Below are positions 6,185 through 63,679 of a stretch of DNA of 64,000 bases, piece by piece; position 1 is the stretch's first letter; every line of letters starts with the position of its first letter. The position numbers and the translations under genes were made by a program. The notes beneath the pieces are model-generated. The model worked only from the letters and a program-made list of their open reading frames with translations. It did no database searches and was not told where the DNA came from. The stretch comes from a virus (Duplodnaviria; Heunggongvirae; Uroviricota; Caudoviricetes), in the IMG/VR virus record IMGVR_UViG_3300044951_001136, one strand, 5' to 3'.

Positions 6185-6192
6185 GATAAATA
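6185..6192 (+). promoter_or_regulatory. GATAAATA motif (T4-late-promoter-like), 5 nt upstream of ATG 6198
   Basis: Motif read in sequence; recurs at 11841, 17015, 18374, 24761, 32916, 53029. Confidence 0.4.
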
Positions 6193-12406: not shown

Positions 12407-12937
12407 ATGAGTACAGCACTTTTTAGAAAATATATTGATATGATAAATGAGGCACAAGAAGGTGGCCCTGCTGACATACAACAAATAGCAGCAGGTATGG
12501 AATTCTTACCTACACATAAGCAACCAAAACAATACAAATATGTAGATGGTGGTATGCCAGGTAAGATGCCAGCAATGACATATACTGTAGCAACACAACA
12601 AATGCCAGTTGTTACTATTACTAGTGATGGTAAAGAAACACAAAATGTTGCTGAACCAAATGATATAATTATGTCTGGCCCAAGCAGAGAAAATTATGTT
12701 GTTAAGTCAGCAAAATTTCCTAAATTATATCAAGGTAAACTAGGTGAAGTTGTTGTGCCCGAACAGGGTCCTAGAATGGTAGCATTGTATACTGGTCAAC
12801 AACCAATCACATTTACTGCGTCATGGGGTGAGCAAATGGTATTAAAGCCAGGGGATTACCTAGTCAAAGACGGTGATAACTACTATCGTATTGCTAAAGT
12901 AGAATACGAACAAACATATAACCCACCGGGTAAATAA
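12407..12937 (+). CDS. hypothetical protein (176 aa)
   Basis: ORF with AAAGGAAATAAAATG SD. Confidence 0.5.
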   Translation: MSTALFRKYIDMINEAQEGGPADIQQIAAGMEFLPTHKQPKQYKYVDGGMPGKMPAMTYTVATQQMPVVTITSDGKETQNVAEPNDIIMSGPSRENYVVKSAKFPKLYQGKLGEVVVPEQGPRMVALYTGQQPITFTASWGEQMVLKPGDYLVKDGDNYYRIAKVEYEQTYNPPGK

Positions 12938-15900: not shown

Positions 15901-16002
15901 GCCAAACTAAGAGCAGCAAGAGATCAAGAACGGATGAAAAAACGTGAACAAGATTATGGTCGTCCGCAAGCTCCTAAATTTGATTATCTAGACGAAAAAT
16001 AA
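12937..16002 (+). CDS. large multidomain protein (1021 aa): N-terminal Pol-beta-like nucleotidyltransferase motif, central KxDG ligase-like motif, C-terminal HxGH cytidylyltransferase-fold domain
   Basis: LSGSSLHF...GDIDTMV; NLKVDGAGIRFGRT; C-terminal ITYGSFVGHKGHEQL ... GGTGISFTQLRDIL (NMNAT/TagD-like HxGH and ISxTxIR motifs). Confidence 0.55.
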   Translation: MKISALLEGRTHLDEGGNLSINGKEAQHLDLKVTKRSYMVPKLNELLYAINSAYFKMYKQGLWSNELLTSGKFLSGSSLHFFNVKGISDEVFTEKKPTVGDIDTMVDKTKEPNLQQFLTAYTNKQIGAATFLGFQRGNEQFSGLFELQDPPVKVQIDFEFVEFEKDNPTDWARFSHSSAWEDLQAGVKGVFHKWLIQAFTALTRKDFILRKLVGRGKLRQEQDVPTTDNMYSFAVSSKEGGGLRAKYEPVLDDNGKPLVSKGLPVMREAPTSGYNQDIGQIFSTILDQRLNPKQAKALQKQFWSFTGLLQVMNSLMSPEEKEQVMQGFLQKTIGPGAQGMYKNNPDKDIAEKMVAINTLLDTLKLSKSAELDQLLAAYRKSFKYTSAGAEEKAGADADVVKSMAKNTLAEAVPSYKRKGIQHIYNPGSSTEMKDADFINFCKEIAQDGGNFANVPINLKVDGAGIRFGRTQNGEPFFMTSRVETPMTKANIGDFEKYGRSQGQSDEQLTRTQNYDKVLSIIVNAKFMKDIPPDTIVNAEMLFNPMAQQDSGGFKFVNIPYDPKKLGKVMTLVPITVKQYSTGEQSPDADEIKEALIKDSTPDIKMINNTLSHKGIDVSKIVNPIVKNSAALLNAVSQRGDSPDKQKAKAILSAARQALSKVIINSPIPGKDQLGDMIEGLVINMPSGTLAKVTSPDMQQKMADKQAMNKKPTEGGNRTTTAVITYGSFVGHKGHEQLIDETIAIAKQVGGVPFIYVSPVVGPDDPIPPADKVKTLQKLYPQYANNIQVWDAGGTAMKKIEKELVLPANSKYNKIIVVVGADRKDSTESWLNSLEKRMKDPVALAKYGGTQNQVEFQTIGTERDPEKGGTGISFTQLRDILKNPNASEQDKLNVWMQAFDSQKLGVAWIKHLMDTTAKYSNNQPQAIKEYIKKIKPMLEYATPIQKVKIYNQLLEAKQHLDEMGATIEPIEEEEVMAHMANALIKGAPIAKLRAARDQERMKKREQDYGRPQAPKFDYLDEK

Positions 16003-20774: not shown

Positions 20775-20775
20775 T

Positions 20776-21927
20776 ATGAAACCATCAGATTTTTTAACAG
20801 AACTATCTAACGAAAAGTTAGCACAATACAAAACTGCTGCCGCAGCCGATGCCAGTAAAGCAGATAAAGAAAAAGATTTTGCTCGTGGCAACAAGCGTTT
20901 TAGTGGCATTGTAAAAGCAACTAATAAACAATTTGCAAATGATGTTAAGAAAGAATCAGTTGGTATACCTTATCCAGGAACATATGAAGAAACAAATGAT
21001 ATGTTCAAAGGTTCCGGACAAAGACGCACTGGTACACTAACAACCGAACAAGGTGTGTCGGAGGACAAGTTAAATGAATTAGATATCTTTGCTCCAGTGA
21101 CCACTTATGTTAGATTAGCCAATGGCACATACGTTGCAGCCAGTTGGCGCCGCAACCAAAATTTATCTACTGCAAGTAACTCAGCATCATTTATTGACAT
21201 AAAACCAGTGGCTCCTAATGTTGCTAAACAATTGGGATTAGATCAAAGACTAAATGATCCAGAAAAAAAATACACAGGTGCCGCAACGATTGCATCAGGT
21301 GGCCCTATTCAATCAAGCGGTCCACTTGCTGATAGAACTATTAACGTAGTTGATATTAGCGATCCAAAGGCTGCTACAGACCTCGGTGTTCCTGATACAC
21401 TCTTTGGAAAAATTGCTCAATGGGCGCAACAGCAAGGTCAAAAAGAACAAGGTGTGGCGGAGGAACAACATAGTTGCCCACACTGTAATGGACCAATGTT
21501 CAGTGAAATGATAATGAATGAAAAGAAAGATGCTTGCTACTATAAAGTAAAAAGCCGTTATAAAGTATGGCCAAGTGCCTATGCTAGCGGTGCATTAGTC
21601 AAATGTCGTAAAAAAGGTGCAAGTAATTGGGGTAATAGTAGTAAGAATGAAAGTTCTATACTAGAAGGCATAAATCAAACGGATGAAAGTTTACATGATT
21701 GGTTTAATAAAGAAAAGTGGGTTCGCATGGATACCAAAGGTAATATCAAGGGTCCATGTGCAAGAGAGCCGGGAGAAGGTAAACCAAAATGTTTGCCTCA
21801 AAGTAAAGCACACAGTTTAGGTAAAAAGGGTCGTGCAAGTGCAGCAGCAAGAAAACGCAGAGAAGATCCCAATCCAGAGCGTAGTGGTAAAGCCATCAAT
21901 GTCAACACAAAGAAAACTAAAGGATAA
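20776..21927 (+). CDS. putative internal virion / DNA-binding protein with strongly basic C-terminal tail and Cys cluster
   Basis: EQGVSED and EQGVAEE motifs; CPHCNGP...CYYK; C-term KGRASAAARKRREDPNPERSGKAINVNTKKTKG. Confidence 0.55.
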   Translation: MKPSDFLTELSNEKLAQYKTAAAADASKADKEKDFARGNKRFSGIVKATNKQFANDVKKESVGIPYPGTYEETNDMFKGSGQRRTGTLTTEQGVSEDKLNELDIFAPVTTYVRLANGTYVAASWRRNQNLSTASNSASFIDIKPVAPNVAKQLGLDQRLNDPEKKYTGAATIASGGPIQSSGPLADRTINVVDISDPKAATDLGVPDTLFGKIAQWAQQQGQKEQGVAEEQHSCPHCNGPMFSEMIMNEKKDACYYKVKSRYKVWPSAYASGALVKCRKKGASNWGNSSKNESSILEGINQTDESLHDWFNKEKWVRMDTKGNIKGPCAREPGEGKPKCLPQSKAHSLGKKGRASAAARKRREDPNPERSGKAINVNTKKTKG

Positions 21928-21929
21928 TA

Positions 21930-22370
21930 ATGTTATCAGATAACTTAAAAACACTATTGGGCAGTACATTTGTACTGTATACAAAAACTCACGGATTTCA
22001 CTGGAATATCGAAGGAAGCAATTTCCCGCAATATCATAAATTTTTAAATAAAATGTATGATGAAATCTATGGAACTATTGATACTATTGCCGAATATATC
22101 AGAACTTTAGGCAGTTATTCTCCAGGCAGCTTAGGCAGAATGCTTGAATTGAGTATCATTGAAGAACAACATAAAATTCCTCGTGCTGAATTAATGCTTG
22201 AAGAACTACTAGTTGATTGTGAAAAAATGATTAAGTTAGTAACTGAATTATTTGACATTGCAACAGAAGAAAAAGCACAGGGAATTGCCAATTATCTAGC
22301 TGAACTACAAGACTTATATGCCAAGAAAGCATGGATGATTCGTGCTACACTTAAAAAAGCCCGTGAGTAA
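21930..22370 (+). CDS. Dps/ferritin-like protein
   Basis: STFVLYTKTHGFHWNIEGSNFPQYHKFLNKMYDEI matches the Dps ferroxidase-site region (HWNV.G..F..H..). Confidence 0.7.
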   Translation: MLSDNLKTLLGSTFVLYTKTHGFHWNIEGSNFPQYHKFLNKMYDEIYGTIDTIAEYIRTLGSYSPGSLGRMLELSIIEEQHKIPRAELMLEELLVDCEKMIKLVTELFDIATEEKAQGIANYLAELQDLYAKKAWMIRATLKKARE

Positions 22371-23746
22371 TGAGAGCAATTGAATTTATTAATGAGACTG
22401 CCTCATATCAACCGCCCAAGTTATCAGTTGGTGATAAAATCCTCAAGGGTAAATTTAAGAATAGTCCAGCAGAGATTAAAGGCTTTACTAAAGACAAGCA
22501 CAATCAACCTGTACTAAAAACTAACAAAGGTGAAGTACAGTTATTCAAGCCTCGCATTAGTAAATTAATGAAGGAAGATGAACCAATCAAAATAAGCAAC
22601 AACGATGCCGCAAAGGCTTGGATTGAAAAGGTCTATCAAAAGTATCCAACTATCTTTAAAAATAATCATGTAATGATGTGGGGCGAAGGTGACACTCAGC
22701 AGCTTGCAATGTTTGAACTAACCCCAAGTTTCAGCAAACGAGGTGCAGTAGAAGTAAAATGGTTTCAAGCATATCCACTACGTCAAGGGGTCGGCTCACG
22801 CGCAATGAAAGAATTGCAAGCCATGGCACAAGCAGATGGAATTGCACTAACATTGTTCCCTTGGCAACACGGTCAAGTAAGTCAAAGTAAACTAACAAAG
22901 TTCTACAAGGGGCAAGGCTTCGCTCCTATACACAAGGGTAGTAAGAGCATGAAGTGGGATCCAGCAGTCGGCGAAGCAATGGATCAGGGTTCAAGATGGA
23001 CCGGTGATGAGCCATATAGACAATTAGTTGAACTAGATGATTTAGAAGAAGATTGGAAGAACTGGGTCGCTGGTGGTGCTATGGCATTGGGAGCATTAGG
23101 TGCTGCTAATCAATATAATTCTCCGGTAGAACCAGTTAGAACAGCTAAAATATCTAAAATAACTCAACCCGATGCTGCTCCTGAAGTACAAGTTAAAGCA
23201 GCAACACCCGTAGTTAAAGCAGCATCTCCCACAGTAGATACACAAGCAGAAAATGTTTTATATCAAACTGCAAAAAAAGAAGGAATGAAGGGATCAGAAT
23301 TAGCACAATTTTTAGCTCAGACGAAACATGAAACTTGGAATTTTAGTAGGTTACAAGAAAAGCCACAACCAAAGGTAAAAGATTATTTTGCTAAAAAATA
23401 CGATGTTAAACATTCACCCAGAACTGCTAAGATACTTGGTAATAAACAAGTGGGAGATGGTGCTAGATATCACGGCAGAGGATATATTCAATTGACCGGT
23501 CGTGACAACTATCGTATGGCAGGTGACGCCTTGAAGATAAACTTACTCAAACAACCTGAACTTGCAGCAAGGCCTGACATAGCGTTAAAGGTAGCACTGT
23601 GGTATTGGAACACAAGAGTTAAACCGGGGATAAATAACTTTGATGATACTGCCGCAGTTACTAAGAAAATTAATTCTTCACTATCAGGATTAGAAGATAG
23701 ACACGCAAACTTTATAGATTACAAGAAACGCATTAAATCAACATGA
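22370..23746 (+). CDS. multidomain lysozyme: N-terminal domain + internal hydrophobic segment + GH19-type catalytic domain
   Basis: GRGYIQLTGRDNYRMAG ... WYWNTRV GH19 signature; hydrophobic WVAGGAMALGALGAA; N-term MRAIEFINE shared with other putative virion proteins. Confidence 0.7.
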   Translation: MRAIEFINETASYQPPKLSVGDKILKGKFKNSPAEIKGFTKDKHNQPVLKTNKGEVQLFKPRISKLMKEDEPIKISNNDAAKAWIEKVYQKYPTIFKNNHVMMWGEGDTQQLAMFELTPSFSKRGAVEVKWFQAYPLRQGVGSRAMKELQAMAQADGIALTLFPWQHGQVSQSKLTKFYKGQGFAPIHKGSKSMKWDPAVGEAMDQGSRWTGDEPYRQLVELDDLEEDWKNWVAGGAMALGALGAANQYNSPVEPVRTAKISKITQPDAAPEVQVKAATPVVKAASPTVDTQAENVLYQTAKKEGMKGSELAQFLAQTKHETWNFSRLQEKPQPKVKDYFAKKYDVKHSPRTAKILGNKQVGDGARYHGRGYIQLTGRDNYRMAGDALKINLLKQPELAARPDIALKVALWYWNTRVKPGINNFDDTAAVTKKINSSLSGLEDRHANFIDYKKRIKST

Positions 23747-24183
23747 AAAAAATAATAATATTATTAGCATTGACAATACTATCTAGTGTTGTATTAGCAC
23801 AAAAACAAAAAGAAGGTGTAACATATGATGCTGTAATAACTAGGGTTATTGATGGTGATACGGTAGCCTTTCACGCACCGTTCTTACCTGATCCATTAAA
23901 GAAAGAATTAAGTATTCGTGTGTTTGGTGTTGATACACCGGAAAAAGGTTTCAGGGCAAAATGTCCTAGTGAGGAGCAACGAGGTCAAGCAGCAACTGCC
24001 TTCACTAAACATGCAATTGAAGTAGCAACTAAAAGACAAATTGTTCTCATGGATTGGGACAAGTATGGCGGGCGTGTGTTGGGTGATGTAATATTAAATG
24101 GACAAAGTCTTAGACAAATGTTAATTAGTCAAGGTTTTGCCCGAGAATACTATGGTGAAGCTAAAACTAGTTGGTGTAATTAA
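23743..24183 (+). CDS. secreted staphylococcal-nuclease-like (SNase/thermonuclease) protein
   Basis: Signal peptide MKKIIILLALTILSSVVLAQ; VIDGDTV and GVDTPE SNase motifs. Confidence 0.7.
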   Translation: MKKIIILLALTILSSVVLAQKQKEGVTYDAVITRVIDGDTVAFHAPFLPDPLKKELSIRVFGVDTPEKGFRAKCPSEEQRGQAATAFTKHAIEVATKRQIVLMDWDKYGGRVLGDVILNGQSLRQMLISQGFAREYYGEAKTSWCN

Positions 24184-32988: not shown

Positions 32989-33663
32989 ATGGCGTATAAT
33001 AAGCAAAAAACAGACCCAGAGTTGGGTCAACGAGTACACGAACATTTAGTTAAGATGGGAGTTGAAACTCCTACTATCCCAAACAACTACGACCGTAAAG
33101 AAAAGATAGACCATATTGAAGCGCACTTTGCACATATTATGCGTATCTTAGGTCTTGACTTATCAGACGATAGTTTAATGGATACCCCAAAGCGTGTAGC
33201 AAAAATGTATGTCAACGAAATCTTTTGGGGTCTTGATTACGAAGCATTCCCTAAATGTACCGCAGTTGATAACAAAATGAAGTACAATGAAATGGTATGT
33301 GAACGCAATATTAATGTACAAAGTAATTGTGAACATCATTTAGTGATTATCTCCGGTCTAGCAACTGTCGCATATGTGCCTAAACAAAAGGTACTTGGAT
33401 TGAGTAAAATCAATCGTATCGTAGAATACTTTAGCAAGCGACCACAAATCCAAGAACGATTAACAGAACAAGTCTTTCACGCATTACAATACATACTTGA
33501 AACAGAAGATGTTGCGGTTATGGTTGACGCACAACATTACTGTGTGAAAAGCAGGGGAGTTGAGGATACGGGTAGTAGTACTGTAACAAGTAGATTAGGT
33601 GGTGGGTTTAAAACTGATCCAGCAGCTAGAGCAGAATTCTATCAATTAGCAAGGGGACGATAA
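32989..33663 (+). CDS. folE: GTP cyclohydrolase I
   Basis: NCEHHLVIISG ... LGLSKINRIVEYFSKRPQIQERLT ... DAQHYCVKSRG conserved FolE core. Confidence 0.9.
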   Translation: MAYNKQKTDPELGQRVHEHLVKMGVETPTIPNNYDRKEKIDHIEAHFAHIMRILGLDLSDDSLMDTPKRVAKMYVNEIFWGLDYEAFPKCTAVDNKMKYNEMVCERNINVQSNCEHHLVIISGLATVAYVPKQKVLGLSKINRIVEYFSKRPQIQERLTEQVFHALQYILETEDVAVMVDAQHYCVKSRGVEDTGSSTVTSRLGGGFKTDPAARAEFYQLARGR

Positions 33664-33845
33664 TGAACTGGATCAATATAGACAATTTGATGATGGGAAT
33701 TATAATTGGATATATACTAAATCCACTGCTAGCAGCATTTATATCAATATTTACTAATGCTTGGAAAAGTACAAACTCGGTATGTACCGGAAATTGTAAT
33801 CAAGGTCGTAACTGTACATGCAGAGGAAAAAATGGGATTTCGTAA
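33663..33845 (+). CDS. small membrane protein with Cys-rich tail (60 aa)
   Basis: TAATG-coupled to folE; one TM helix. Confidence 0.3.
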   Translation: MNWINIDNLMMGIIIGYILNPLLAAFISIFTNAWKSTNSVCTGNCNQGRNCTCRGKNGIS

Positions 33846-34068
33846 ACCAATGGACTATACCGGTGTTCATCATCAAATTTACACAGCTGGAATAGAATTG
33901 CATAGCAACTACAACGATGGTTTCAATCAGTTTGAAATCAAAAAAGACTTACATCGTATCAAGTGGTTGCTTGATGAGATTATGGCTGATTCACCTACAT
34001 TCGCCGGCGAAGAAGAATTTCTTGATGAACATTCTAAAATAAAGATGTGGAGAACATTAAAAAAATGA
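33832..34068 (+). CDS. hypothetical protein (78 aa)
   Basis: Start moved to ATG 33832 after GAGGAAAA SD. Confidence 0.35.
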   Translation: MGFRKPMDYTGVHHQIYTAGIELHSNYNDGFNQFEIKKDLHRIKWLLDEIMADSPTFAGEEEFLDEHSKIKMWRTLKK

Positions 34069-34526
34069 TATTCAACAGAATCAAAGAACTAAAACAACAA
34101 GGGCTTAAGATAGGTATCGTATTCTCCCAATTTGATATTCTACATGCCGGGCATATTGCAATGCTTAGTGAAGCTAAAAATCATTGCGACTATCTTATTG
34201 CTGGTTTGCAGAATAACGCACAATGGGATAGAGCGGAGAAGAATGCTCCTATTCAAAGTATTGTTGAGAGGCAGATTAGTTTAAGTGCTGTCCGTTTTGT
34301 AGATGAAATTGTTGTTTACAATACTGAGAAGGACTTGGAAGATATTCTACTCATACTACCTATTGATGTTCGTATCTTGGGTGTAGAATACAAAGATAAG
34401 GATTTTACGGGTAGCGATATTTGTCAAACTCGCAGAATTGAAATAGTATTTAATGAGCGTGATCACAGTTTCAGTAGTTCAAGTCTACGTAAACGAGTTG
34501 CGGACGCACATCAAAAAGATAAGTAA
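34047..34526 (+). CDS. cytidylyltransferase-fold nucleotidyltransferase, TagD / RfaE-domain-II-like
   Basis: GIVFSQFDILHAGHIAML (HxGH), DYLIAGL, C-terminal DHSFSSSSLRKRV (ISxTxIR-like) parallel B. subtilis TagD; alternative start ATG 34065. Confidence 0.7.
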   Translation: MENIKKMIFNRIKELKQQGLKIGIVFSQFDILHAGHIAMLSEAKNHCDYLIAGLQNNAQWDRAEKNAPIQSIVERQISLSAVRFVDEIVVYNTEKDLEDILLILPIDVRILGVEYKDKDFTGSDICQTRRIEIVFNERDHSFSSSSLRKRVADAHQKDK

Positions 34527-34527
34527 A

Positions 34528-35031
34528 ATGACACAACTACCAGTAACATATAAGTGGACTTCCACAAAAGAGTATCACGATGCGTTCCCCTGTGCTTATA
34601 GACAGTACAAAGCCGACAGCCATTGCCAGTTTTTACATGGTTATAGCTTCTCAATGAAGTTCTATTTTGGAACAAACGACTTAGATGCGCGCCGATGGGC
34701 TGCGGATTATGGCGGCTTGAAAGAACTAAAGCAAACATTAGAGAGTCAATTTGACCATACAACATTAGTGGCTGAATCAGATCCACATCTAGACTGGTAT
34801 GTGCAGGCGGAACATCGTGGCATTATGAAATTAACTATTCTCCCCAACTTAGGATGTGAAAGTCTTGCAGATATGCTATACAAGTATGTTAACGGGGTTT
34901 ACATTCCTGATATGTGGGGTGAAAGTGAAGCAAAGCGTTTGTGGTGCTATCGGGTTGAAGTACGTGAAACACAGGCAAATATGGCTTTTAGAGAGGGGCA
35001 TCGTGAATGGAATGAGGATTTGTTTGAATGA
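34528..35031 (+). CDS. queD: 6-carboxy-5,6,7,8-tetrahydropterin synthase (QueD / PTPS family)
   Basis: SHCQFLHGYSFSM (Cx3HGx) and EHRG T-fold motifs; start moved to ATG 34528 after upstream TAA. Confidence 0.75.
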   Translation: MTQLPVTYKWTSTKEYHDAFPCAYRQYKADSHCQFLHGYSFSMKFYFGTNDLDARRWAADYGGLKELKQTLESQFDHTTLVAESDPHLDWYVQAEHRGIMKLTILPNLGCESLADMLYKYVNGVYIPDMWGESEAKRLWCYRVEVRETQANMAFREGHREWNEDLFE

Positions 35032-35246
35032 GTTCTGATTCAGACTTTAAAATGTTTAAATGGGTACCTGATGGTACTTATGATTACAGTGACTTTCTTA
35101 CACGATATGTTATAGTCAATGGTAATCCAACTGTTGTTATCAATCGTGCGTGGGTAAATAGTGGAGGACCAGAAGGAGTTTCAGCCGAATTGAAACAAGC
35201 ATGGGGTTCATTTCCTGATATGCCTCTAAAGCCATTAAAGAAATAA
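35028..35246 (+). CDS. hypothetical protein (72 aa)
   Basis: ATGA-coupled ORF. Confidence 0.4.
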   Translation: MSSDSDFKMFKWVPDGTYDYSDFLTRYVIVNGNPTVVINRAWVNSGGPEGVSAELKQAWGSFPDMPLKPLKK

Positions 35247-35401
35247 TGAAGATATTTTGGAGAATATGGGCAAAATCCCTAGGTGAGAAAGCGGGCACAA
35301 CCGATACAGAATCTGACCGTATTGCGTGTATTAGAACTTGTATTGTGTTATGCTATGTCATTACAAACTTGTTTATCATAGCAGGTGCAATTAGTTAGAT
35401 T
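35246..35401 (+). CDS. small hydrophobic protein (51 aa)
   Basis: TAATG-coupled ORF below track cutoff; C-terminal TM helix. Confidence 0.25.
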
Positions 35402-35413
35402 AAGGATCAAAAA

Positions 35414-36262
35414 ATGAGCAAATTAAAAATTAGTGAACTATTTTATAGTATTCAAGGAGAAGGCCGATATATCGGAGTACCAAGTATTTTCCTACGAACA
35501 TTTGGTTGCAACTTCAAATGTGCAGGGTTTGGTATGCCAAGGGGCGAAATAAGTAGTGAAGTAGAAGATATCGCAGCCCGTGTGCATTACTACACGGCTT
35601 ACACCCAACTACCATTAGTTAGTACAGGTTGCGATAGTTATGCAAGTTGGGATCCTCGTTTCAAAGATTTCAGTCCAATACGTACTACTGATAGTATTGT
35701 TGAAAGTATTATGACAATGCTTCCGCACAAGCGTTGGATGGAAGAACATCTTGTTATTACAGGGGGTGAACCTTTGCTAGGTTGGCAACGCAGTTATATT
35801 GATTTACTTTCACATGAAAACATGACGGGTTTACAAGAACTAACATTTGAAACAAATGGCACTCAACCGTTGCAACATCAATTGAAAACCTACTTGCATC
35901 AATGGGCCATCAATCGTTCTAGAGGTGCAATAACATTTAGTGTTAGTCCTAAACTTGGTATCAGTGGCGAGAAGTGGGAAGAAGCAATATGTCCTGAAAT
36001 TATTGATGAATATAGTCAAGTAGGTCATACATATCTGAAGTTTGTTGTGGCCAATAGACAAGATGTAGAAGAAGCACAAGAAGCAGTTAATCAATATCGT
36101 ACTCACGGATTTAGGGGTAATGCTTACTTGATGCCATGTGGCGGAGTTGAAAGTGTATATAACATGAATGCCAAAACAGTTGCACTTGAAGCAATGCGGT
36201 TAGGCTGGCGTTATAGTGATAGACTTCAGGTGCCACTCTTTAAAAACGCATGGAATACCTAA
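35414..36262 (+). CDS. queE: 7-carboxy-7-deazaguanine synthase (QueE, radical SAM) with atypical Cys motif
   Basis: ISELFYSIQGEGRYIGVPSIFLRTFGCNFKC parallels E. coli QueE MFQTLQGEG...GCPVGCAWC; third Cys is replaced (CAGF). Confidence 0.75.
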   Translation: MSKLKISELFYSIQGEGRYIGVPSIFLRTFGCNFKCAGFGMPRGEISSEVEDIAARVHYYTAYTQLPLVSTGCDSYASWDPRFKDFSPIRTTDSIVESIMTMLPHKRWMEEHLVITGGEPLLGWQRSYIDLLSHENMTGLQELTFETNGTQPLQHQLKTYLHQWAINRSRGAITFSVSPKLGISGEKWEEAICPEIIDEYSQVGHTYLKFVVANRQDVEEAQEAVNQYRTHGFRGNAYLMPCGGVESVYNMNAKTVALEAMRLGWRYSDRLQVPLFKNAWNT

Positions 36263-38096: not shown

Positions 38097-38926
38097 AAAA
38101 AATATTAATTACAGGTTGTTCGGGTTACATTGGTAGTCATCTAGTTAAGATGCTAGCAAATGACTACGAGGTACACGGCCTAGATATCAATGTTCCGCAA
38201 GCTGACGGATTACAAGAATTCTATCAAGTTGATATTCGTAGACTATTTGAATTACCAACCGAGTTTGATGCAACGATTCACTTGGCAGCACTAGTCAATG
38301 TGGGTGAAAGTGAGCGTATCCCACTAAGTTATTACATCACTAATTTGAATGGTACAATGAATGTTATCAATAAGGTACGGACAAAGAACTTTATATTTGC
38401 CAGCACTGGAGCAGCAGTGGGATGTGCTAGTGCGTATGGCATTAGTAAACGAGCAGCAGAGGATGTGGTGCGTGAGTATTTTACTCAGCATAATCCTAAA
38501 CCTTATACAATATTTAGATTCTACAATGTTATTGGTAGTGATGGGTTTGATCCAACCAATCCTGATGGATTAATGTATAATCTAATGAAGGCTAAGGAAA
38601 GAGGCGAGTTTACCATCTTTGGCAATGATTATGATACACGAGATGGAACCTGCATTCGTGATTATGTTCATGTTAACGAGATATGTGACGCATTATGTAC
38701 TGCTATTGAGAAGCCAAGTAATCAAATAGAATGTTTAGGGCATGGGGTAGGTTATACTGTTGCCGAGATAGTTAATAAGTTCAAAGAAGTAAATAATATA
38801 CCTAATATTAATTTGCTTACAAAGATAGGCCCAAGAAGAAAGGGTGACTTAGCAATATCTGTATTAGATAATGTGTCACCCTATATGAAAGAGGTATACT
38901 CTTTGGAAGATTTGCTTAAGATTTAA
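38093..38926 (+). CDS. NAD-dependent epimerase/dehydratase (extended SDR, GalE-like but shorter)
   Basis: ILITGCSGYIGSHL Rossmann; YGISKRAAE YxxxK catalytic motif. Confidence 0.75.
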   Translation: MKKILITGCSGYIGSHLVKMLANDYEVHGLDINVPQADGLQEFYQVDIRRLFELPTEFDATIHLAALVNVGESERIPLSYYITNLNGTMNVINKVRTKNFIFASTGAAVGCASAYGISKRAAEDVVREYFTQHNPKPYTIFRFYNVIGSDGFDPTNPDGLMYNLMKAKERGEFTIFGNDYDTRDGTCIRDYVHVNEICDALCTAIEKPSNQIECLGHGVGYTVAEIVNKFKEVNNIPNINLLTKIGPRRKGDLAISVLDNVSPYMKEVYSLEDLLKI

Positions 38927-39812
38927 TTTTAACCCATTTATCAACTAGCATATTTTTAAGTGCTACTGTATCTGGTAACTTATTCTTACGCATAAAATCA
39001 TTTAATTTAACAGCAGTTGGATAATCAGTAGAATTAGGTTTACGAGCATTGCTCATATCTACACCAAGATTACTATCGGAATCTGGACGTCTACTGCCAT
39101 AGTAGACTAATTCATATCGCAACTTTTCAGCACGGCTAGTTAAATCTGATTTTTTGTTTTTATATATTAGTTCTACCCACGGTTCAAGGTACATTGTCGG
39201 CGGACGACTTGGTGTGTAACCTTTTGGTTGTTGTCCTTTAAGCAATTTAGCAGCGTCACCGGGAGTAACTGCTTTGCGGGTATCTTGTAAACGCCATGCC
39301 TTCTCATCTGTGTATAAGTAAGCTGATATACCTTGCTTCTTGGCAGTGATTAAAATTGTTCTAACTTCGGGGCTACGATTTTCGCTCTGTTCTTTGAGCA
39401 AAACATGAACAGCAATTACTCCGTTAATTGGAATTTCAGGTGTCTTTGAAAATACTCTATCTTCGCTTTCACTGGTACGAGTACCGTTACTATGTTGCCA
39501 AGACCTTTCCCAATAATCAATTGCTTTTGTTTTGTAATGCCGATTTAACCAGTTCCCATCAATTACAAACATAGCGGCGCTGCTACCAGTATATCGGTGA
39601 TAGTCTCCCACTTTGCTGCGAGTTGTGCTTAGAAAGTAAAGATATCCCGGCGGTGCATATTGTTCTTCACTAGAGTTACCTGTGACACTACTTAATTGAA
39701 AAACTCCAGTAGTTAGAATTTTTGCAGCAGCAGATACACCGGCATAATGGTAGACAATAGCAGTAGCTGCTTCATCTAGTATTGCTTCTGCGATAAATTC
39801 AGTTGCTCTCAT
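38916..39812 (-). CDS. putative packaged virion protein (298 aa)
   Basis: N-term MRATEFIAEA matches MRAIEFINE (22370) and MRFNEIISEA (41464-) class. Confidence 0.5.
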   Translation of the reverse strand: MRATEFIAEAILDEAATAIVYHYAGVSAAAKILTTGVFQLSSVTGNSSEEQYAPPGYLYFLSTTRSKVGDYHRYTGSSAAMFVIDGNWLNRHYKTKAIDYWERSWQHSNGTRTSESEDRVFSKTPEIPINGVIAVHVLLKEQSENRSPEVRTILITAKKQGISAYLYTDEKAWRLQDTRKAVTPGDAAKLLKGQQPKGYTPSRPPTMYLEPWVELIYKNKKSDLTSRAEKLRYELVYYGSRRPDSDSNLGVDMSNARKPNSTDYPTAVKLNDFMRKNKLPDTVALKNMLVDKWVKIKS

Positions 39813-41467
39813 TAATGTCTTAACAATAGGGTACTCAATACACCAGGATCATTCGCACTAACATCACCTTCACCCGGTGCAACGATAACATTGTACTTCA
39901 TTCCAGCTGGAATTGAATTTCTCTTAGACATATATTCATTATAACTTAAAATACTTGAAGAACTAATGCCGTATTCGTTAGCAATTCGTTGTTTCATTTG
40001 TTTAAGTGCTGCGTCATCAGCAGGTTGCCATGCTCCGTCATCCGTCTTTTTCAAGTTACCCTTCTCATCCTTGGCCAATAAGTCATAGAATAGTTTCTCT
40101 GGAACAATACGACTGTTCTTTGTCTTATCTAATTTAGGATCCTGAGCCTTTACTTGTTTCTCTTGCTCGGTGTTAGCACCTTCACTCCAATTGATGATGA
40201 AGTTATCTGGCTTCTTAGCTAATGCTGCTCCTGCCATCTTAGTGTACGCATAGAATCTAACATCAGGATGTTTAGCAGCCATTTTTAATGCCATATCCAA
40301 GTATTCTGGACTGAAGAAGTCGCCGGCATCATGCCAACGAACCGTTACTTTCCATCCATTGGGGAATTTCTTATCGCCTGCAGCACCCTCTTGTGATTCA
40401 GCAGAGATTTCATTGCTTAGTTGATTAAAGAAACCATCTGGATCATTCAACAGATATGTAAGTATTCTGCCGTCACTTTGCCATGCAGCCTTAAATTGAA
40501 TCTTGCCGCCCTTCATGGCGAAACAATCAACTTTACAAGAGCCGGCGCCTGGACATGTGTTAACAACAATTAGATTATTTGTTTGTTCATCTAATGCAAT
40601 ACCTACCAATGCCGCGAACCCAACATTAAAGAATTGTTCAAACTCACCATTGCTGTGCTTCATCTTTTCGTTTTGTTTAAGTAATGCTTTGGGACGAATT
40701 GCTAATGTTTGTTTAACAGCATCTTCATCGTATGTTTTACCATCTGGACTTAAGTATGTAACTACACTACTACGATGGATGTAAGGCATCTTGTACTTGT
40801 CACCTTTAGTTTTACCAGTTGTATATTTTTCATTGCCCTTTTTATCTACTTTAACATTGCCTGCTTTATCTACATCGGGAGTACCAACGATTCGTTTCAT
40901 GTAATCTTGAAACTCTTGACCCTTTAAGTCACGAGTTTGTGCTGGTAGTTTAGTTGCTTCATCTAGTCCAGATAGACTACGAATTCTTGCTAGATGTTCT
41001 TCACCTTCCGCTAAACTTTGCTCATCATAACCATAGTCACCGGTTTTCATATCATCAATGTAAGCATACTCATCTTCATAACCATTCTTTTTAGCTGCTG
41101 CGCGAATATCATCATATGTTATCCCATGTTTGCGGGCATACTTTGGCAAGTAGTCAGCTGGATCACCATCTGGGAAAATGTTGCTGATGATCTGAGTAAC
41201 ATCAAACCAAATCTTATCTAAATCTAATTTAGGTTCTGGTGCAGACATTCTTGATAATTTAGGCATAGCTGGCTTTGCTACCTTGGGATTACCCTGGCGA
41301 TCAAGTGGAACGCCACCTGGACCATGTGTAAATCTGCCTTCATCTACTTCTTCATCTGGCATATCACCAGCACTAGCAACAAATTGCTGAGGTGTCATAA
41401 TTGAGATACCCTTTGGGGCGCCCGGCAACTTTGGCTCTGCGCCTTCTAATAATTCTTTGAAGTTCAT
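39812..41467 (-). CDS. putative packaged virion protein (551 aa), Cys-cluster domain of unknown function
   Basis: N-term MNFKELLEG; EQSLAEGEE motif; NTCPGAGSCKVDC...WHDAGDFF. Confidence 0.5.
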   Translation of the reverse strand: MNFKELLEGAEPKLPGAPKGISIMTPQQFVASAGDMPDEEVDEGRFTHGPGGVPLDRQGNPKVAKPAMPKLSRMSAPEPKLDLDKIWFDVTQIISNIFPDGDPADYLPKYARKHGITYDDIRAAAKKNGYEDEYAYIDDMKTGDYGYDEQSLAEGEEHLARIRSLSGLDEATKLPAQTRDLKGQEFQDYMKRIVGTPDVDKAGNVKVDKKGNEKYTTGKTKGDKYKMPYIHRSSVVTYLSPDGKTYDEDAVKQTLAIRPKALLKQNEKMKHSNGEFEQFFNVGFAALVGIALDEQTNNLIVVNTCPGAGSCKVDCFAMKGGKIQFKAAWQSDGRILTYLLNDPDGFFNQLSNEISAESQEGAAGDKKFPNGWKVTVRWHDAGDFFSPEYLDMALKMAAKHPDVRFYAYTKMAGAALAKKPDNFIINWSEGANTEQEKQVKAQDPKLDKTKNSRIVPEKLFYDLLAKDEKGNLKKTDDGAWQPADDAALKQMKQRIANEYGISSSSILSYNEYMSKRNSIPAGMKYNVIVAPGEGDVSANDPGVLSTLLLRH

Positions 41468-42654
41468 TTCTTGTTATTCCTAATAAATTGTTCAGCAAGC
41501 ATTACTAATTCATGTAGTTCTTCAATGCTTTCGCAATGCCATCTACGCAAACTTTTATTTATATTGCTATTTGGATCTCTTGCTGTTTTTGCACCAGTAC
41601 GATGTTTCTTCATTCCACGCATTCTGGCACAAAAGCTAGCTCTACGCTTTGCTGCCTTGCTACCTTTTTTAAGTTTGCTTGGCTTAGTTGTTACCGCTGT
41701 TTGAATCTTGCTACCAGGATGACTGCGGCGATAGCTACTAACAGACTTTTTACTCATCCCACCTGCTCTTGGGTTGTTATGCTTTGACCAAGTTTCGCCT
41801 TCATCAACTTCTTGTGAACTGAGGAAATTACCTAATTCTTCAGCACCAGTACCACGTTGACCATCTTGATGTTTCCAATTAGAACCTTGACGAACAATCT
41901 TATCACCGTCATCATTTGCATAAACACTACTGTTGTCAGAGTAATATCCGAAAGAATTCAGTGTGGATACTAGATTATCACTTGCCTCAGAGCCTTCCGG
42001 CAGCCATTTCGCAAAGGCTTTTCTAAGGGTTGGTTTATCTACAACATGAGTTGTATCATCCATTGGAACATAAGCTGTGTTAGTATTTTTCCCCGTTGCG
42101 TCGGTTTGCTGTCTGACAGTTGCTGCACCAAGATCATATGATTTATCAGCCGCTACTTGCTTACCGGTAGCATCGGTAGTTTGTTTAATCTTCAATGGTC
42201 CTGCATTGTAATTTTGCGTAATTTGATTAGTAGTTAAGTCGATGGTTTGGCCAGATCCATTAAAGTTAGGACTACTATATGTTATAGCCTTACCCTGAGC
42301 ATTGTATGTAAATGAACCAAACCCGCCAGAATAAGTTCTAGTACCATCTTTGTTTGTTGTTACTCTATTGCCATTACCTAGATCACCGTCTCGTGCGGGT
42401 AACTGTGGCACAGGCGGCACTTTAACCTGTGCCCTTGGAGCAGTAGGTGACCCTAGAGCAGCCATTGCATTATTAGTCGCACCTGCCACAGTGGCCGCAC
42501 CCAAGCCTCTTAAGAATCCTCTGCGGTCAATTTCTTCTAGGTTGCCTTCCGCCACACCTTGCTTTGGCTTCTTTCCAGCTTTTTTCATGGCAATTGCAAT
42601 TGCTGCTTGTTGGGCAGGACTACCTGCTTCGGATATAATTTCATTAAATCTCAT
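41464..42654 (-). CDS. putative internal virion protein with Tat-like RRGFLRG segment after a QGVAEG motif and a very basic C-terminus
   Basis: MRFNEIISEAG...KQGVAEGNLEEIDRRGFLRGLGAATVAGATNNAMAALG; C-term KKGSKAAKRRASFCARMRGMKKHRTGAK. Confidence 0.55.
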   Translation of the reverse strand: MRFNEIISEAGSPAQQAAIAIAMKKAGKKPKQGVAEGNLEEIDRRGFLRGLGAATVAGATNNAMAALGSPTAPRAQVKVPPVPQLPARDGDLGNGNRVTTNKDGTRTYSGGFGSFTYNAQGKAITYSSPNFNGSGQTIDLTTNQITQNYNAGPLKIKQTTDATGKQVAADKSYDLGAATVRQQTDATGKNTNTAYVPMDDTTHVVDKPTLRKAFAKWLPEGSEASDNLVSTLNSFGYYSDNSSVYANDDGDKIVRQGSNWKHQDGQRGTGAEELGNFLSSQEVDEGETWSKHNNPRAGGMSKKSVSSYRRSHPGSKIQTAVTTKPSKLKKGSKAAKRRASFCARMRGMKKHRTGAKTARDPNSNINKSLRRWHCESIEELHELVMLAEQFIRNNKK

Positions 42655-42691: not shown

Positions 42692-43759
42692 ATGCGACAA
42701 TACATATCTTATTTATCGCTTTGGGCTTTTATCTTGACAAATAATAATATCAAACGGATTGGATTTGCTTGCAAATTTTCAGAACTAAACAAGAAGGGTG
42801 AGATTACCAGCATACCTGAATTGAATACAGGCGGTACTACTCTGGCTTGGGCCGCAAGGCAAAAGCGTAGTGTAGCAGAAGAAAAGGTAATTGAAGTTGC
42901 CAAACGCAACATTCTACATACTCATAATCTAGTCAAAAAGGTAGCAACACTACAACCCGAACTACGCATGGTTCGTCTGACTAGTGACATGCTGAGTTTT
43001 TACACCCATGATGACTGGAAAGACTTCTGGCAAGATAGTGATATTCAAAACAAACTAGCACACTGGATGGCACCAATTGGTGAAACAGCTAGAGCCAATG
43101 ATGTTCGTCTTAGTATGCACCCCGGACAATTTACAGTTTTAGCGAGTGACCGTGAAGAAGTAGTAAATAAGAGTATAGAAGAATTTGAATATCATTGTGA
43201 CATGGTTCGTTGGATGGGCTATGGCAAATCATTTCAAGACTTCAAAGTTAATGTACACATTTCTGGTAGAAAAGGGCCTCAGGGTATCAGAGATGTTTAT
43301 GGTCGTTTGTCCCCAGAAGCCCGAAACACACTTACACTAGAAAATGAGGAATACACACATGGACTATCTGACTGCTTATCGTTATCTGACCTCGTGCCTA
43401 CGGTACTCGATATCCATCACAACTGGATTCGTGAAGGTGAATATATTCAATCTACTGATACGCTTGTACAACGGGTTATTGATAGTTGGCGTGGTGTTCG
43501 CCCTACTATGCATTACAGTGTTAGCCGCGAAAATGTACTCACAGATCATTCCACTACACAATTACCCGATCATGGTGCGTTGATTAATGCAGGGTATAAT
43601 AAACAGAAACTTCGGGCACATAGCGACCACTATTGGAATACTGCGGTTAACGATTGGGCATTGACATTTCTTGACAATTTTGATATAATGACCGAGAGTA
43701 AAGGAAAAAACCTAGCTAGTTTTAAATTATTTGAAAGATATAAAAATGGGATTATTTGA
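42692..43759 (+). CDS. uvdE: UV-damage endonuclease
   Basis: RLSMHPGQFTVLAS, VNVHISGRKG, LTLENEEYTH, VLDIHHNW align with B. subtilis UvsE (RTSFHPNQFTLFTS, INIHIGGAYG, MTLENDDKTY, VFDFHHF). Confidence 0.8.
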   Translation: MRQYISYLSLWAFILTNNNIKRIGFACKFSELNKKGEITSIPELNTGGTTLAWAARQKRSVAEEKVIEVAKRNILHTHNLVKKVATLQPELRMVRLTSDMLSFYTHDDWKDFWQDSDIQNKLAHWMAPIGETARANDVRLSMHPGQFTVLASDREEVVNKSIEEFEYHCDMVRWMGYGKSFQDFKVNVHISGRKGPQGIRDVYGRLSPEARNTLTLENEEYTHGLSDCLSLSDLVPTVLDIHHNWIREGEYIQSTDTLVQRVIDSWRGVRPTMHYSVSRENVLTDHSTTQLPDHGALINAGYNKQKLRAHSDHYWNTAVNDWALTFLDNFDIMTESKGKNLASFKLFERYKNGII

Positions 43760-57403: not shown

Positions 57404-58198
57404 ATGAAGCGTATTTTAACTCTCTCCGTTCTTGCTGCGGCAGTATTGGCAACAGGTTGCACTCGTATTGAAACCGGTGAGGTGGGTGTGCGTGTGGGAT
57501 TTGACAAGCAGGTACAAAGTGGTGAACTCTTGCCCGGCTCGTTCAATCAAGTATTGATCGGAGATGTACTTACATTCCCGATTAAAGATGTCAATGTCCC
57601 GTTGAATGATATGACTCCCGTTGCCAAAGACAACTCAACAATGAAAGACTTTGATGCTGTGGTTGTCTATAACATCAACCCTGCACAAGTAGCAGAGCTA
57701 TATTCTACTAAGAACAAGAGCTTCCACACTGAATTCAAGGGTGATACTTATGTGATGTACAATTACATTGTGCAAAATGCTCGTAATGCCATCTACAAGG
57801 CAGCCCGTAAGTACGAGGCCCTGGACATGGCAGATGCTCGTAGCGATATGGAAAACTTCATCAAGGAAGAAATTGTTCGCAATCTTACTGAAGAAAAGCT
57901 GGATGGTAGCATTATGATCAGTCAAGTGTTGATTCGTAATGTAGTACCAGCAGATTCAGTTGTGGCAAGTGCTAATGAATTAGTCAAAGCCAAGAACGAA
58001 CTCAAGCAGAAAGAAGTTGAAGTTAAGACTGCTGAGGCTGAAAGCCGTCGTATGGCAGCATTGGCTAACAACAGCGGTAGTTCAATTGCATTCATGCAGG
58101 CACAGGCCATGTTGAACATTAGTGAAGGTATCAAGAATGGCAAAGTGCAGACAATTGTTGTTCCTTCAAACTTTAACGCATTGATGATGACCAAATGA
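57404..58198 (+). CDS. SPFH/Band-7 (stomatin/prohibitin-like) lipoprotein
   Basis: Lipobox LATGC; IETGEVGVRVGFDKQVQSGELLPG SPFH N-terminal signature; coiled-coil C-terminus. Confidence 0.75.
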   Translation: MKRILTLSVLAAAVLATGCTRIETGEVGVRVGFDKQVQSGELLPGSFNQVLIGDVLTFPIKDVNVPLNDMTPVAKDNSTMKDFDAVVVYNINPAQVAELYSTKNKSFHTEFKGDTYVMYNYIVQNARNAIYKAARKYEALDMADARSDMENFIKEEIVRNLTEEKLDGSIMISQVLIRNVVPADSVVASANELVKAKNELKQKEVEVKTAEAESRRMAALANNSGSSIAFMQAQAMLNISEGIKNGKVQTIVVPSNFNALMMTK

Positions 58199-61556: not shown

Positions 61557-62759
61557 ATGACTTCAGAAAATAAACTAATACATTGTTCTTTTTGTAACAC
61601 CCACAAAGATAAAGTTAAAAAACTTATCGTAAGTGAAGATGTTGCAATTTGCAGCGATTGTATTGTATTATGTAATAACTTGGTTGAAGATGATAGTTTA
61701 GTAGTTGATACTCAATCCAAAGAAGAAGTTAAATACGATCCTTCTGATATCAAGGAATACTTAGATGAGCATGTTATCGGTCAAGATAATGCTAAAATGG
61801 TATTGAGTGTTGCTATTGCTAATCATTACAAACGCATTACCTATCCGCCAAAAGACTTAGAAATTCAAAAGGGCAATGTGTTACTGATCGGGCCCACGGG
61901 ATCAGGTAAAACTTTGCTGGCAAAGACAGTGGCAAAATATCTTAAAGTTCCTTTTGTTGTAACTGATGCTACTAGTTTGACAGAAGCTGGTTATGTGGGT
62001 GATGATGTTGAATCAATGATTAGTATGTTAGTTAATGCTGCTGGTGGAGATCCTAGACTGGCGGAACGCGGCATTGTGTTTGTTGATGAAATTGACAAGA
62101 TTGCCCGCAAGAGTGAAAGTGCAAGTATTACCCGTGATGTGTCGGGTGAGGGTGTTCAACAAGCATTGCTTAAATTAGTAGAAGGTACAATTTGTCGTAT
62201 CCCAGCAGCAGGTGGTAGAAAGCATCCTGGTGGTGATATGTTAGAAATTGATACAAAAAACATCCTATTCATAGCAGGAGGTGCATTTGTCGGGTTGAAA
62301 GACTTGATCAGTGATCGTAAAAATGGTTCTAATATTGGATTTAGTGCAGATATCAAAGATAAAAAGGCAGAGGGTGATCTTAAAGAAGTTACCCCAGATG
62401 ATTTGACCAAATATGGAATGATTCCCGAATTTATCGGTCGTTTCACTACTACAGTTAGTATTGGTGAATTAAACAAAGAGGAATTACTCAAAGTTCTTAC
62501 TGAAGTTAAAAACAACTATATTGAACAGTACAAATATCTGTTGAGTATTGATAATATTAAGTTGACATTTTCTCCAAGTGCATTGGATCAAATAGTTGAA
62601 AACTGCTTAAAGCTCAAGACAGGGGCACGTGGATTACACACTGAAATAGAAAAAGTTTTGATGCCGGCAATGTTTAATACGAAGAAATACAGAGAAAATA
62701 ACATTACCAAGATAGATATATCAAGAGAGCAAGTTTTAGAACCAAAATCAATGATTTAA
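61557..62759 (+). CDS. clpX: ClpX ATP-dependent unfoldase
   Basis: Zn-binding N-domain [32 protein letters not shown]; Walker [15 protein letters not shown]; VFVDEIDKI; ClpX-like length. Confidence 0.9.
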
Positions 62760-63373: not shown

Positions 63374-63679
63374 ATGTCTAAAACAGAAACAAAAATCAAG
63401 ATTAAACCTAACCTCGCATTAGTTGAACCACCGTTGTTCAAAATCATTTATATTAATGACAATGTTACTAGTATGGAATTTGTAGTGAGTAGTTTGATTG
63501 ATTACTTTAATTATAACCAAGATACAGCGAAAACAATTACTCATAATATCCATGAAGAGGGTAGTGCGGTAGTTGCTGTTTTACCCTACGAGATTGCTGA
63601 ACAACGAGGTATTGAAGTTACACTTGATGCGCGAAGTCAAGGTTTTCCGTTGCAGATTAAAGTAGAGGCTGATGCTTAA
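63374..63679 (+). CDS. clpS: ClpS adaptor protein
   Basis: PPLFKIIYINDNVTSMEFVVSSLIDYF matches E. coli ClpS [27 protein letters not shown]. Confidence 0.8.
   Translation: MSKTETKIKIKPNLALVEPPLFKIIYINDNVTSMEFVVSSLIDYFNYNQDTAKTITHNIHEEGSAVVAVLPYEIAEQRGIEVTLDARSQGFPLQIKVEADA

Follow-up and report, generated by a model that had tools for sequence, protein, structure and literature searches.

An internal twin-arginine-type signal in a junction-linked phage polyprotein suggests a possible route from the virion to the host envelope

We analyzed a 64,000-nt stretch of DNA from a tailed-phage record of IMG/VR (IMGVR_UViG_3300044951_001136; Caudoviricetes), which we call the window and whose coordinates are used throughout. 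An open reading frame (ORF) on its minus strand, 41464-42654, encodes a protein of 396 residues that carries a twin-arginine translocation (Tat)-type signal internally, behind a QGVAEG motif, as a first-pass annotation of the window had pointed out. We observed that the protein is built from modules that meet at hydrophobic-x-Glu motifs, and that the Tat module recurs inside the polyproteins of other phages, where it precedes various cargoes, several of them with a periplasmic role. Comparison among these relatives gives strong support to the view that the segment behaves as a real export module and not as a plain transmembrane (TM) helix, and likewise strong support to QGVAE↓G (the arrow marks a putative cut) as a recurrent module boundary. 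We propose, tentatively and as a reading that falls a little short of probable, that this is a cargo polyprotein of a T4-related jumbo phage, in which a cut in the prohead would unmask the Tat signal, and that the ejected piece would be exported by the next host.

Residues 31-68 of the protein read KQGVAEGNLEEIDRRGFLRGLGAATVAGATNNAMAALG, with the twin arginines (RR) at residues 44-45. The NCBIfam model TIGR01409 (TAT_signal_seq) matched residues 42-65 at 19.0 bits, above its cutoff of 16.7, while the Pfam model PF10518 (TAT_signal) gave 18.4 bits with the full protein and 19.8 with the trimmed one, both below its gathering score of 22.7. The consensus [ST]-R-R-x-F-L-K is represented by D-R-R-G-F-L-R at residues 43-49, and many relatives have [ST]-R-R-G-F-L-[KRQ]. 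The core is followed by 24 uncharged residues rich in Gly, Ala and Thr, a hydrophobic (h-) region whose mean Kyte-Doolittle hydropathy of 0.56 is too weak for a typical TM helix. Next comes A-M-A↓A, a small-x-small signal-peptidase site (A63-M64-A65↓A66). The signal is not N-terminal in the primary product, neither here nor in the relative P0002, where the RR is at residue 277; it would become N-terminal only after the hypothesised cut at E36.

The borders of the modules were apparent from the relatives of the protein (Table 1). More than 4800 database proteins have its C-terminal DUF6321 domain, and the 120 that were listed were 63-100% identical, mostly at least 80%. Most of these 120 keep the N-terminus MRFTEIISEAGSPAQQAAIAIAMKKAGKKPKxVAEG and have entirely different middles. 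The BLAST high-scoring segment pairs (HSPs) stop at residues 37-42 and resume at residues 278-283, that is, at the motifs V34-A-E-G and V283-D-E-G. A third junction motif, L218-P-E-G, precedes the acidic module, which follows DVAE↓G in P0003 and GVTE↓G in P0004. The C-terminal module matched DUF6321 (PF19846) at residues 296-372 with 38.4 bits against a cutoff of 28.5. The strongly basic C-terminus that the first-pass annotation had described was also borne out, the last 109 residues having an isoelectric point (pI) of 11.4 and 28 Lys plus Arg against 6 Asp plus Glu.

Motifs of the form [VILM]-x-E-[GA] numbered 356 in the 120 relatives against 83 ± 8 in shuffles, a 4.3-fold enrichment that is an overcount, the sequences being related and not independent events, and that weighs correspondingly less in favour of our proposal. 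The junction was also conserved as DNA: allowing for up to 3 mismatches, the window has 11 copies of the 15-nt sequence GGTGTGGCGGAAGGC, which encodes GVAEG, where 0.42 would be expected. The copy at 42544-42558 (-) is exact and the others lie within 19026-21465 (+), in three ORFs in all. It is GC-rich in a genome of 37% GC, and may serve as micro-homology for module shuffling. The junction Val codon was GTG in 7 of the 11 junctions as against 15% genome-wide. Another ORF of the window, 18405-20774 (+), of 789 residues and beginning MRFNQIVENT..., has 10 [VIL]xE[GA] junctions where 1.7 were expected, and repeated short modules, for example GSKYPWLD[NS]PRK. It had no match in Pfam, PHROG or the phage database, and looks like a pure junction-linked polyprotein.

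The Tat module itself recurs. Among 277 fetched relatives, which form an unbiased set, RRGFL[KR]G with an h-region was present in 12, before at least six unrelated cargoes. The core was invariant in these 12, the h-regions and cargoes differing, and a [VM]-x-E site lay 2-7 residues upstream of the module in 10 of them. In P0002, which is 93% identical to the 396-residue protein, the module stands after QQGVTE↓G, and in P0036 it is found at residue 273. Two degenerate DNA scans of IMG/VR, with EEIDRRGFL[KR]G and ED[LIM][ST]RRGFL[KR]G, returned 12 and 61 loci, respectively, and these 73 loci contained 54 distinct Tat modules. The recurrence in the relatives, with their different cargoes, and at the IMG/VR loci argues that RRGFLRG is more than a chance match.

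The RR lay within the first 20 residues of the ORF in 8 of the 54 modules, at residues 21-100 in 4 and beyond residue 100 in 42 (maximum 1113), and the residue two before the upstream Glu (P3) was Leu, Ile, Val or Met in 46; only these two properties are unbiased, the patterns having fixed the RRGFL core and a nearby upstream Glu, which limits what the scans add to the case for our proposal. When the same patterns were run against 185,579 cellular genomes as a control, they gave 0 and 7 hits, and the real Tat signals among the seven (four) were all N-terminal (MCEDLTRRGFLKG). The gathering score of PF10518 was passed by 6 of 16 related modules scanned. A protein search with the first 79 residues returned 20 short fragments and three further Tat examples.

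The first-pass annotation had allowed that the segment might be just a TM helix. Such a helix could serve for membrane insertion or anchoring, as part of an ejection channel or as a bitopic anchor, with the RR pair incidental, and membrane insertion is known for proteins that other phages eject (T7 gp14-16). We consider this improbable. Across the 54 modules, the maximal 19-residue hydropathy window had a median of 1.12 and a maximum of 1.40, which is under the usual TM range; a small-x-small cleavage site was present in 54 of 54, and the median uncharged run was 17. The invariance of RRGFL[KR]G in the unbiased family set, where h-regions and cargoes differ, the TIGR01409 match and the soluble periplasmic domains among the cargoes also speak against a mere helix. 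The Tat alternative was thus upheld insofar as the segment is a shuffled unit before varied cargoes, several of them acting in the periplasm, while the subthreshold Pfam TAT_signal score of the 396-residue copy remains on the side of the helix.

The cargoes argue for real export, since TonB_2/TolA_C, LysM plus SLT, and GH19 domains all act outside the cytoplasm. In a 1055-residue ORF on a 209.5-kb viral contig (L027), a TonB_2/TolA C-terminal domain (66.8 bits) comes after the Tat module at residue 661. In L054, a cytidylyltransferase-like domain (CTP_transf_like) of the cytoplasmic type, which is also found upstream of the Tat module in L033, is followed by IDE↓D-ISRRGFLKG and then by TonB_2 (62.6 bits). 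In L031, LysM and SLT come after MRASEFIAE↓DLSRRGFLRG, and L069 is laid out alike but with GH19 in their place.

The cargo domain of the window protein (residues ~76-196) had 138 representative homologs, nearly all of them behind leaders that resemble a capsid-targeting sequence (CTS) and without a signal, which indicates that signal and cargo are independent units. An AlphaFold model from a 35-sequence alignment, with a predicted local distance difference test score (pLDDT) of 88.6, was all-beta, with 12 strands in a hairpin array. Foldseek found nothing in the PDB for this model at E<=0.001. It bore a vague likeness to single-layer beta sheets (OspA, TCP, RHS), from which no function was assigned, as no match was significant. 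DUF6321 had no sequence relative in the PDB, and its AlphaFold2 (AF2) model was dropped as too poor (pLDDT 59.9).

Several chains carry more than one signal. The complete 1084-residue ORF of L049 (IMGVR_UViG_3300019093_000584) has twin-arginine signals at residues 288 and 966, each behind a hydrophobic-x-Glu site and ahead of its own cargo. A Tat and a Sec-like signal are combined within one polyprotein in L019, L028 and L086, the Sec-like signal being WKSALGAAALAGxMAMG...A.A in the first two and GIRTALGAVALAGTVAMSPAQA in the third, and L023 has a lipobox-type signal, IKKSAAATALATCMAAGGTLSGC, after VIDE↓G. One cargo family has a Tat signal in front in L073 and a non-RR signal in L086. Downstream of Tat cargoes we also observed DUF6321 and leader-type modules, which are mostly found in signal-less proteins. 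Two Tat signals, or a Tat and a Sec or lipoprotein signal, cannot all be used by a chain that stays uncut, and in such a chain DUF6321 and other modules downstream of the signal would be carried along into the periplasm; both points suggest cleavage ahead of export. A second internal signal-like segment was present in the window itself, in ORF 22370-23746 (+; 458 residues), which starts MRAIEFINE and has a middle domain, LEE↓DWKNWVAGGAMALGALGAA and a C-terminal GH19 muramidase (55 bits). DWKNWVAGGAMALGALGAA is hydrophobic and Gly/Ala-rich, has no RR, and resembles a signal-anchor-release (SAR) or Sec signal.

The polyprotein might also never be packaged and be exported in the producing cell, either through an internal, loop-type Tat signal or after exposure by a cytoplasmic Glu-specific protease. 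In the loop mode, the N-terminal part would stay cytoplasmic and signal peptidase would free the cargo. In either mode the cargo would act in the infected cell's own periplasm, where it might contribute to lysis, to remodelling of the envelope or to superinfection exclusion. We judge this rather unlikely. The same pairs of signals within one chain, and the co-export that it would impose on normally signal-less modules, speak against it, as do the hydrophobic-x-Glu directly upstream of 46 of the 54 modules and N-terminal extensions of up to 1100 residues. Thylakoid Tat substrates, for their part, tolerate N-terminal extensions, and actinobacterial Rieske proteins have internal Tat signals. Eight IMG/VR modules have their RR at residues 12-15 and could be Tat precursors of the usual kind; among these are ones with GH19 or LysM plus SLT lysin domains, whose usual role is late and from within. 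The hydrophobic segment before GH19 in ORF 22370-23746, which is like that of a membrane-tethered endolysin, also fits export in the producing cell, as does the result that neither protease nor virion evidence for this phage was found in the window, its flanks, the fetched loci or the literature.

The first-pass annotation had stated that no in-frame alternative start exists just upstream of the signal. This did not hold, as Val34 of GVAEG is encoded by GTG, ten codons before the RR. An internal translation start at this codon, or at an ATG before the RR in relatives (MDEDLSRR, MSRR, MNRR, MAEGSLEEIDRR), would yield, besides the full-length protein, a shorter product with a standard N-terminal Tat signal. 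Most of the 12 relatives have an ATG or GTG 2-10 codons ahead of the RR, P0122 and P0125 excepted, and T4 gene 21 has an annotated internal start. Shine-Dalgarno-like bases, however, lie 0-2 nt from the candidate codons (1-2 nt at Val34) as against ~6-8 nt in the annotated genes of the window, GTG is the usual Val codon at junctions without a Tat module (7/11), and in many of the IMG/VR modules neither Met nor Val is found close to the RR (for example, TVDEDLTRR and GIEEDLSRR), and we regard an internal start as very improbable.

The form of the junctions and of the N-terminus recalls T4 head maturation. The sites of T4 gp21 have the form L/I-X-E, with the cut behind the Glu, and the first 10 residues of IPIII are a CTS that ends in a gp21-type site (PMC9026906). 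The protein of the window has a feature of T4-type internal proteins in its ~10-residue N-terminal propeptide ending in hydrophobic-x-Glu (MRFNEIISE↓A), and CTS-like starts were also observed in ORFs 38916-39812 (MRATEFIAE↓A), 39812-41467 (MNFKELLE↓G), 12937-16002 (MKISALLE↓G) and 22370-23746 (MRAIEFINE↓T). The N-terminus of T4 IPIII is MKTYQEFIAE. A propeptide pattern M-[RK]-x-x-[ED]-phi-phi-x-E is common to most of the 120 listed relatives, and since the residues vary while E-phi-phi-x-E is kept, selection appears to act at the protein level. The junctions VAE↓G, LPE↓G and VDE↓G all fit the hydrophobic-x-Glu↓ rule of the T4 prohead protease. One of the Tat-module polyproteins, L034 (IMGVR_UViG_3300046028_002339), starts MKTYQFITE, which is nearly the T4 IPIII sequence.

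The phage DNA polymerase was 43-48% identical to those of the T4-related jumbo phages Phosso, Vibrio phage 2.275.O, Atu_ph07, XaC1 and K64-1/RaK2. Two of these closest matches, K64-1 and Vibrio phage 2.275.O, encode a gp21-type prohead protease (PF03420). In cultured phages, DUF6321 was found mainly in cyanophages and Pelagibacter phages, and in the T4-like cyanophage P-SSM2 the DUF6321 gene lies between gp15 and gp16. The protein of this gene, PSSM2_123 (L012, 3509-4324), has small, Cys-containing basic modules joined by VVEE↓G and FVNE↓G, and its modules CWxGY...VPNCV and DACYxKVKSRYxVWPSAYASGALVKCRK recur in jumbo-phage polyproteins.

In the mechanism that we propose, whose outline was already suggested in the first-pass annotation, the ORF product would be a cargo polyprotein made up of a targeting peptide, a leader and three modules separated by VAE↓G, LPE↓G and VDE↓G. 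A T4-type prohead protease would cut the junctions inside the prohead and free a 184-residue piece (residues 37-220) with the new N-terminus GNLEEIDRRGFLRG and its RR 7 residues in. After ejection into the cytoplasm of the next host, TatBC would recognise the piece and direct its export to the periplasm, and signal peptidase would trim it at AMA↓A to a beta-rich protein (residues 66-220; predicted ~16.5 kDa, pI 9.5). The other two modules, acidic and basic (DUF6321), would remain in the cytoplasm or with the DNA. T4-type prohead proteases are assumed to act in the prohead; if the junctions are sites of such a protease, the fragments would be virion contents that first meet Tat in the next host.

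A number of results weigh against this mechanism. When T4 gp20, gp21, gp22, gp23 and gp24 were compared with the ORFs of the window, no head gene or protease was matched, and 10-kb extensions beyond both window ends held only tail-fibre-like and Clp genes, with no head genes or protease. A protease hidden Markov model (HMM) had no match in any of the fetched loci, and head genes were likewise not found there. Searching a set of 5.8 billion proteins with the K64-1 protease gave RaK2-like phages as the best 120 matches, none of them on DUF6321-carrying contigs, and the degenerate DNA pattern VAQPSAPDAY for the protease gave no relevant contig among the IMG/VR matches listed. Our literature search found no virion proteomics for any member of the family. 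Some relatives have a CTS-like N-terminus fused straight to a Tat signal (RR at residues 12-13) and a lysin cargo; these would work as ordinary Tat precursors without processing, and for a lysin that is exported, a late role in infection is more plausible than one following ejection. The signal of the 396-residue protein itself is below the Pfam gathering score, and the n-region that would remain after the proposed cleavage (GNLEEID) is acidic. The suggestion of the first-pass annotation that QGVAE↓G is a processing site therefore stands in part: the motif is a recurrent module boundary and fits the gp21 rule, while no gp21-type protease was found on the contig stretch searched. A match to K64-1 'hyp9061' beside the Tat ORF in L063 was considered as a head gene and rejected, as it is a homing endonuclease.

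The interpretation, which the evidence supports in part, extends to many other phage polyproteins that have export signals inside them, a large class that has so far gone undescribed. It is somewhat less likely than not that T4-related and mostly jumbo phages package such junction polyproteins, that their maturation protease unmasks Tat, Sec and lipoprotein signals, and that the secretion machinery of the new host re-exports the pieces into its periplasm or membranes at the onset of infection. Our literature search found no paper describing the family of DUF6321 and Tat-module polyproteins.

A protein identical to the 396-residue product, P0001, is encoded on the metagenomic JGI contig Ga0485158_0000001 (234,546 bp), of which the window represents approximately positions 106.8-170.8 kb. 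A near-identity DNA search of GenBank phages gave no close relative of the polyprotein locus. The polyprotein gene is the first of three co-directional, overlapping minus-strand genes, and the second of these is syntenic in relatives. Divergent from them is a gene for a UvdE-like UV endonuclease (42692-43759, +), and 37 nt separate the two start codons. This arrangement is kept in at least three different contigs with varying polyprotein content: at the corresponding position, a 344-kb contig (P0002) and a third contig (P0036) each encode a protein of another module composition that likewise includes a Tat module.

The promoter-like sequence GATAAATA upstream of the gene is a weak hint of a T4-like late promoter. 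It occurred 10 times in the window, at 6185, 11841, 17015, 18374, 23629, 24638, 24761, 32916 and 50970 (+) and at 42710 (-), against 5.0 ± 2.3 expected, a roughly 2-fold enrichment that 4 of 100 shuffles reached. All 10 copies are on the strand of the neighbouring ORFs, several of them ~10-60 nt from a start codon, and only 6 of 18 related ORFs are preceded by it.

Table 1. Features of the polyprotein ORF and its surroundings (window coordinates; residue numbers refer to the 396-residue protein)
Feature	Position	Strand	Basis or remark
Whole ORF, modular polyprotein, 396 residues plus stop	41464..42654	-	Translation; gene 1 of three-gene operon
Residues 1-9, MRFNEIISE, CTS-like N-terminal propeptide ending I-S-E↓A	42628..42654	-	Pattern common to relatives
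Residues 10-36, conserved basic leader AGSPAQQAAIAIAMKKAGKKPKQGVAE	42547..42627	-	In most of 120 listed relatives; local HMM 74 bits
Residues 32-37, junction QGVAE↓G, putative prohead-protease site (V-A-E↓G)	42544..42561	-	HSP ends; 15-mer match
Residues 37-65, Tat-type signal peptide GNLEEIDRRGFLRGLGAATVAGATNNAMA	42460..42546	-	Predicted signal-peptidase cut after A65 (AMA↓A)
Residues 44-50, twin-arginine core RRGFLRG	42505..42525	-	Translation
Residues 66-220, cargo, predicted all-beta, ending at junction W-L-P-E↓G	41995..42459	-	Homologs; AF2 model
Residues 221-285, acidic module B, pI ~4.1, ending at E-V-D-E↓G	41800..41994	-	Module recurs in P0003 and P0004
Residues 286-396, basic C-terminal DUF6321 domain, pI 11.4	41467..41799	-	PF19846 match
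Operon gene 2, 551 residues	39812..41467	-	CTS-like MNFKELLE↓G; junctions VDE↓G, LAE↓G; GP88 domain
Operon gene 3, 298 residues	38916..39812	-	N-terminus MRATEFIAE↓A; EFIAE same as in T4 CTS
GATAAATA, like the T4 late promoter TATAAATA	42710..42717	-	56 nt 5' of the polyprotein start codon

Conventional signal placement is also used by the phage, as seen from two other proteins of the window: a staphylococcal-nuclease homologue (23743-24183, +) has an N-terminal export signal and starts MKKIIILLALTILSSVVLA, and an SPFH/Band_7 protein (57404-58198, +) has the lipoprotein-like start MKRILTLSVLAAAVLATGC. A simple pattern search of the window revealed no TatA-like gene. We also observed a proteostasis set of DnaJ, ClpA/B-like AAA+, ClpX and ClpS (window 8030-11103, 61557-62759 and 63374-63679; L010, 11304-11756 and 15529-16101), to which belong an Hsp20 gene that begins inside the window end and a ClpP gene just past it. 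Genes for GTP cyclohydrolase I, PTPS (QueD-like), radical-SAM and cytidylyltransferase-like proteins lie close together at ~32989-36262 (L001, 16393-19666), which suggests a 7-deazaguanine-type DNA modification pathway.

Phage proteins that are ejected with the DNA act in the cytoplasm (T4 IPI*, Alt) or form the ejection channel, and we know of none that is handed to host export. If our proposal is true, it describes a virion-to-envelope delivery route so far undescribed, in which capsid proteolysis would unmask the signals of pre-loaded, periplasm-directed effectors that could act before phage gene expression. Such effectors might be TolA/TonB-like decoys, wall hydrolases or beta-rich proteins such as the present cargo, and the route would matter for superinfection exclusion, for the takeover of the envelope and for competition between phages. 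A further outcome would be a natural protease-activated Tat signal, together with a modular leader-junction-cargo grammar usable for protein delivery into bacterial compartments. If export took place in the producing cell instead, it would still be unusual in Tat biology for a signal to lie hundreds of residues deep in a soluble polyprotein.

Among known systems, the T4 internal proteins (IPI, IPII, IPIII) and Alt are similar in that the propeptide ends phi-x-Glu (MRFNEIISE↓A and MRATEFIAE↓A here, MKTYQEFIAE↓A in T4), in the cleavage after hydrophobic-x-Glu, which is proposed here, in the hypervariable cargoes behind a conserved leader, and in the T4-related polymerase. They differ in that there is no sequence homology, and here there are many modules per chain, junctions conserved as DNA and a C-terminal DUF6321. 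To our knowledge, no T4 internal protein carries an export signal, whereas some modules here do. The inner-body and ejection proteins of phiKZ, 201phi2-1 and SPN3US are likewise jumbo-phage head proteins with several x-x-Glu sites and a gp21-like protease, and are ejected. According to two papers (PMC9026906; PMC10052503), cleavage after Glu at short motifs affects many head proteins of these phages, which are ejected into the host. The motif there is S/A-x-E as against V/I/L-x-E here, the phage lineage is another one, and export signals are not known to have been reported in those proteins. Polyvalent proteins combine several effector domains in one chain, which is predicted to enter the virion and to reach the host together with the DNA, in some cases with proteolytic processing (Iyer et al. 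2017, PMC5512222); the terms 'signal peptide', 'twin-arginine' and 'periplasm' have 0 occurrences each in that paper. The multi-modular chain is shared with them. Their hallmark domains, in contrast, were not detected: Pfam gave only DUF6321 and TAT_signal on the 396-residue protein and detected no MuF, MPTase or ParB-like domain in the neighbouring polyproteins, and the junction motif here is new.

With bacterial Tat signals, the module shares the RRxFL[KR] core, the weakly hydrophobic, Gly/Ala-rich h-region and the AxA site; it differs in lying 43 to more than 1100 residues into the primary product and not at its N-terminus. That a non-N-terminal RR signal can engage Tat is indicated by the internal Tat signals of actinobacterial Rieske proteins (Sec/Tat co-operative insertion) and by the thylakoid Tat loop model. 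The Rieske signals, however, follow Sec-inserted TM helices in membrane proteins, whereas the upstream part here is soluble, reaches up to ~1100 residues and ends in a protease-like site before the signal. T7 gp16 is packaged in the head and ejected, and its lytic transglycosylase domain acts in the periplasm, reaching the envelope through the ejection channel without an export signal; the relatives described here, with their SLT and GH19 cargoes, resemble it in what they carry.

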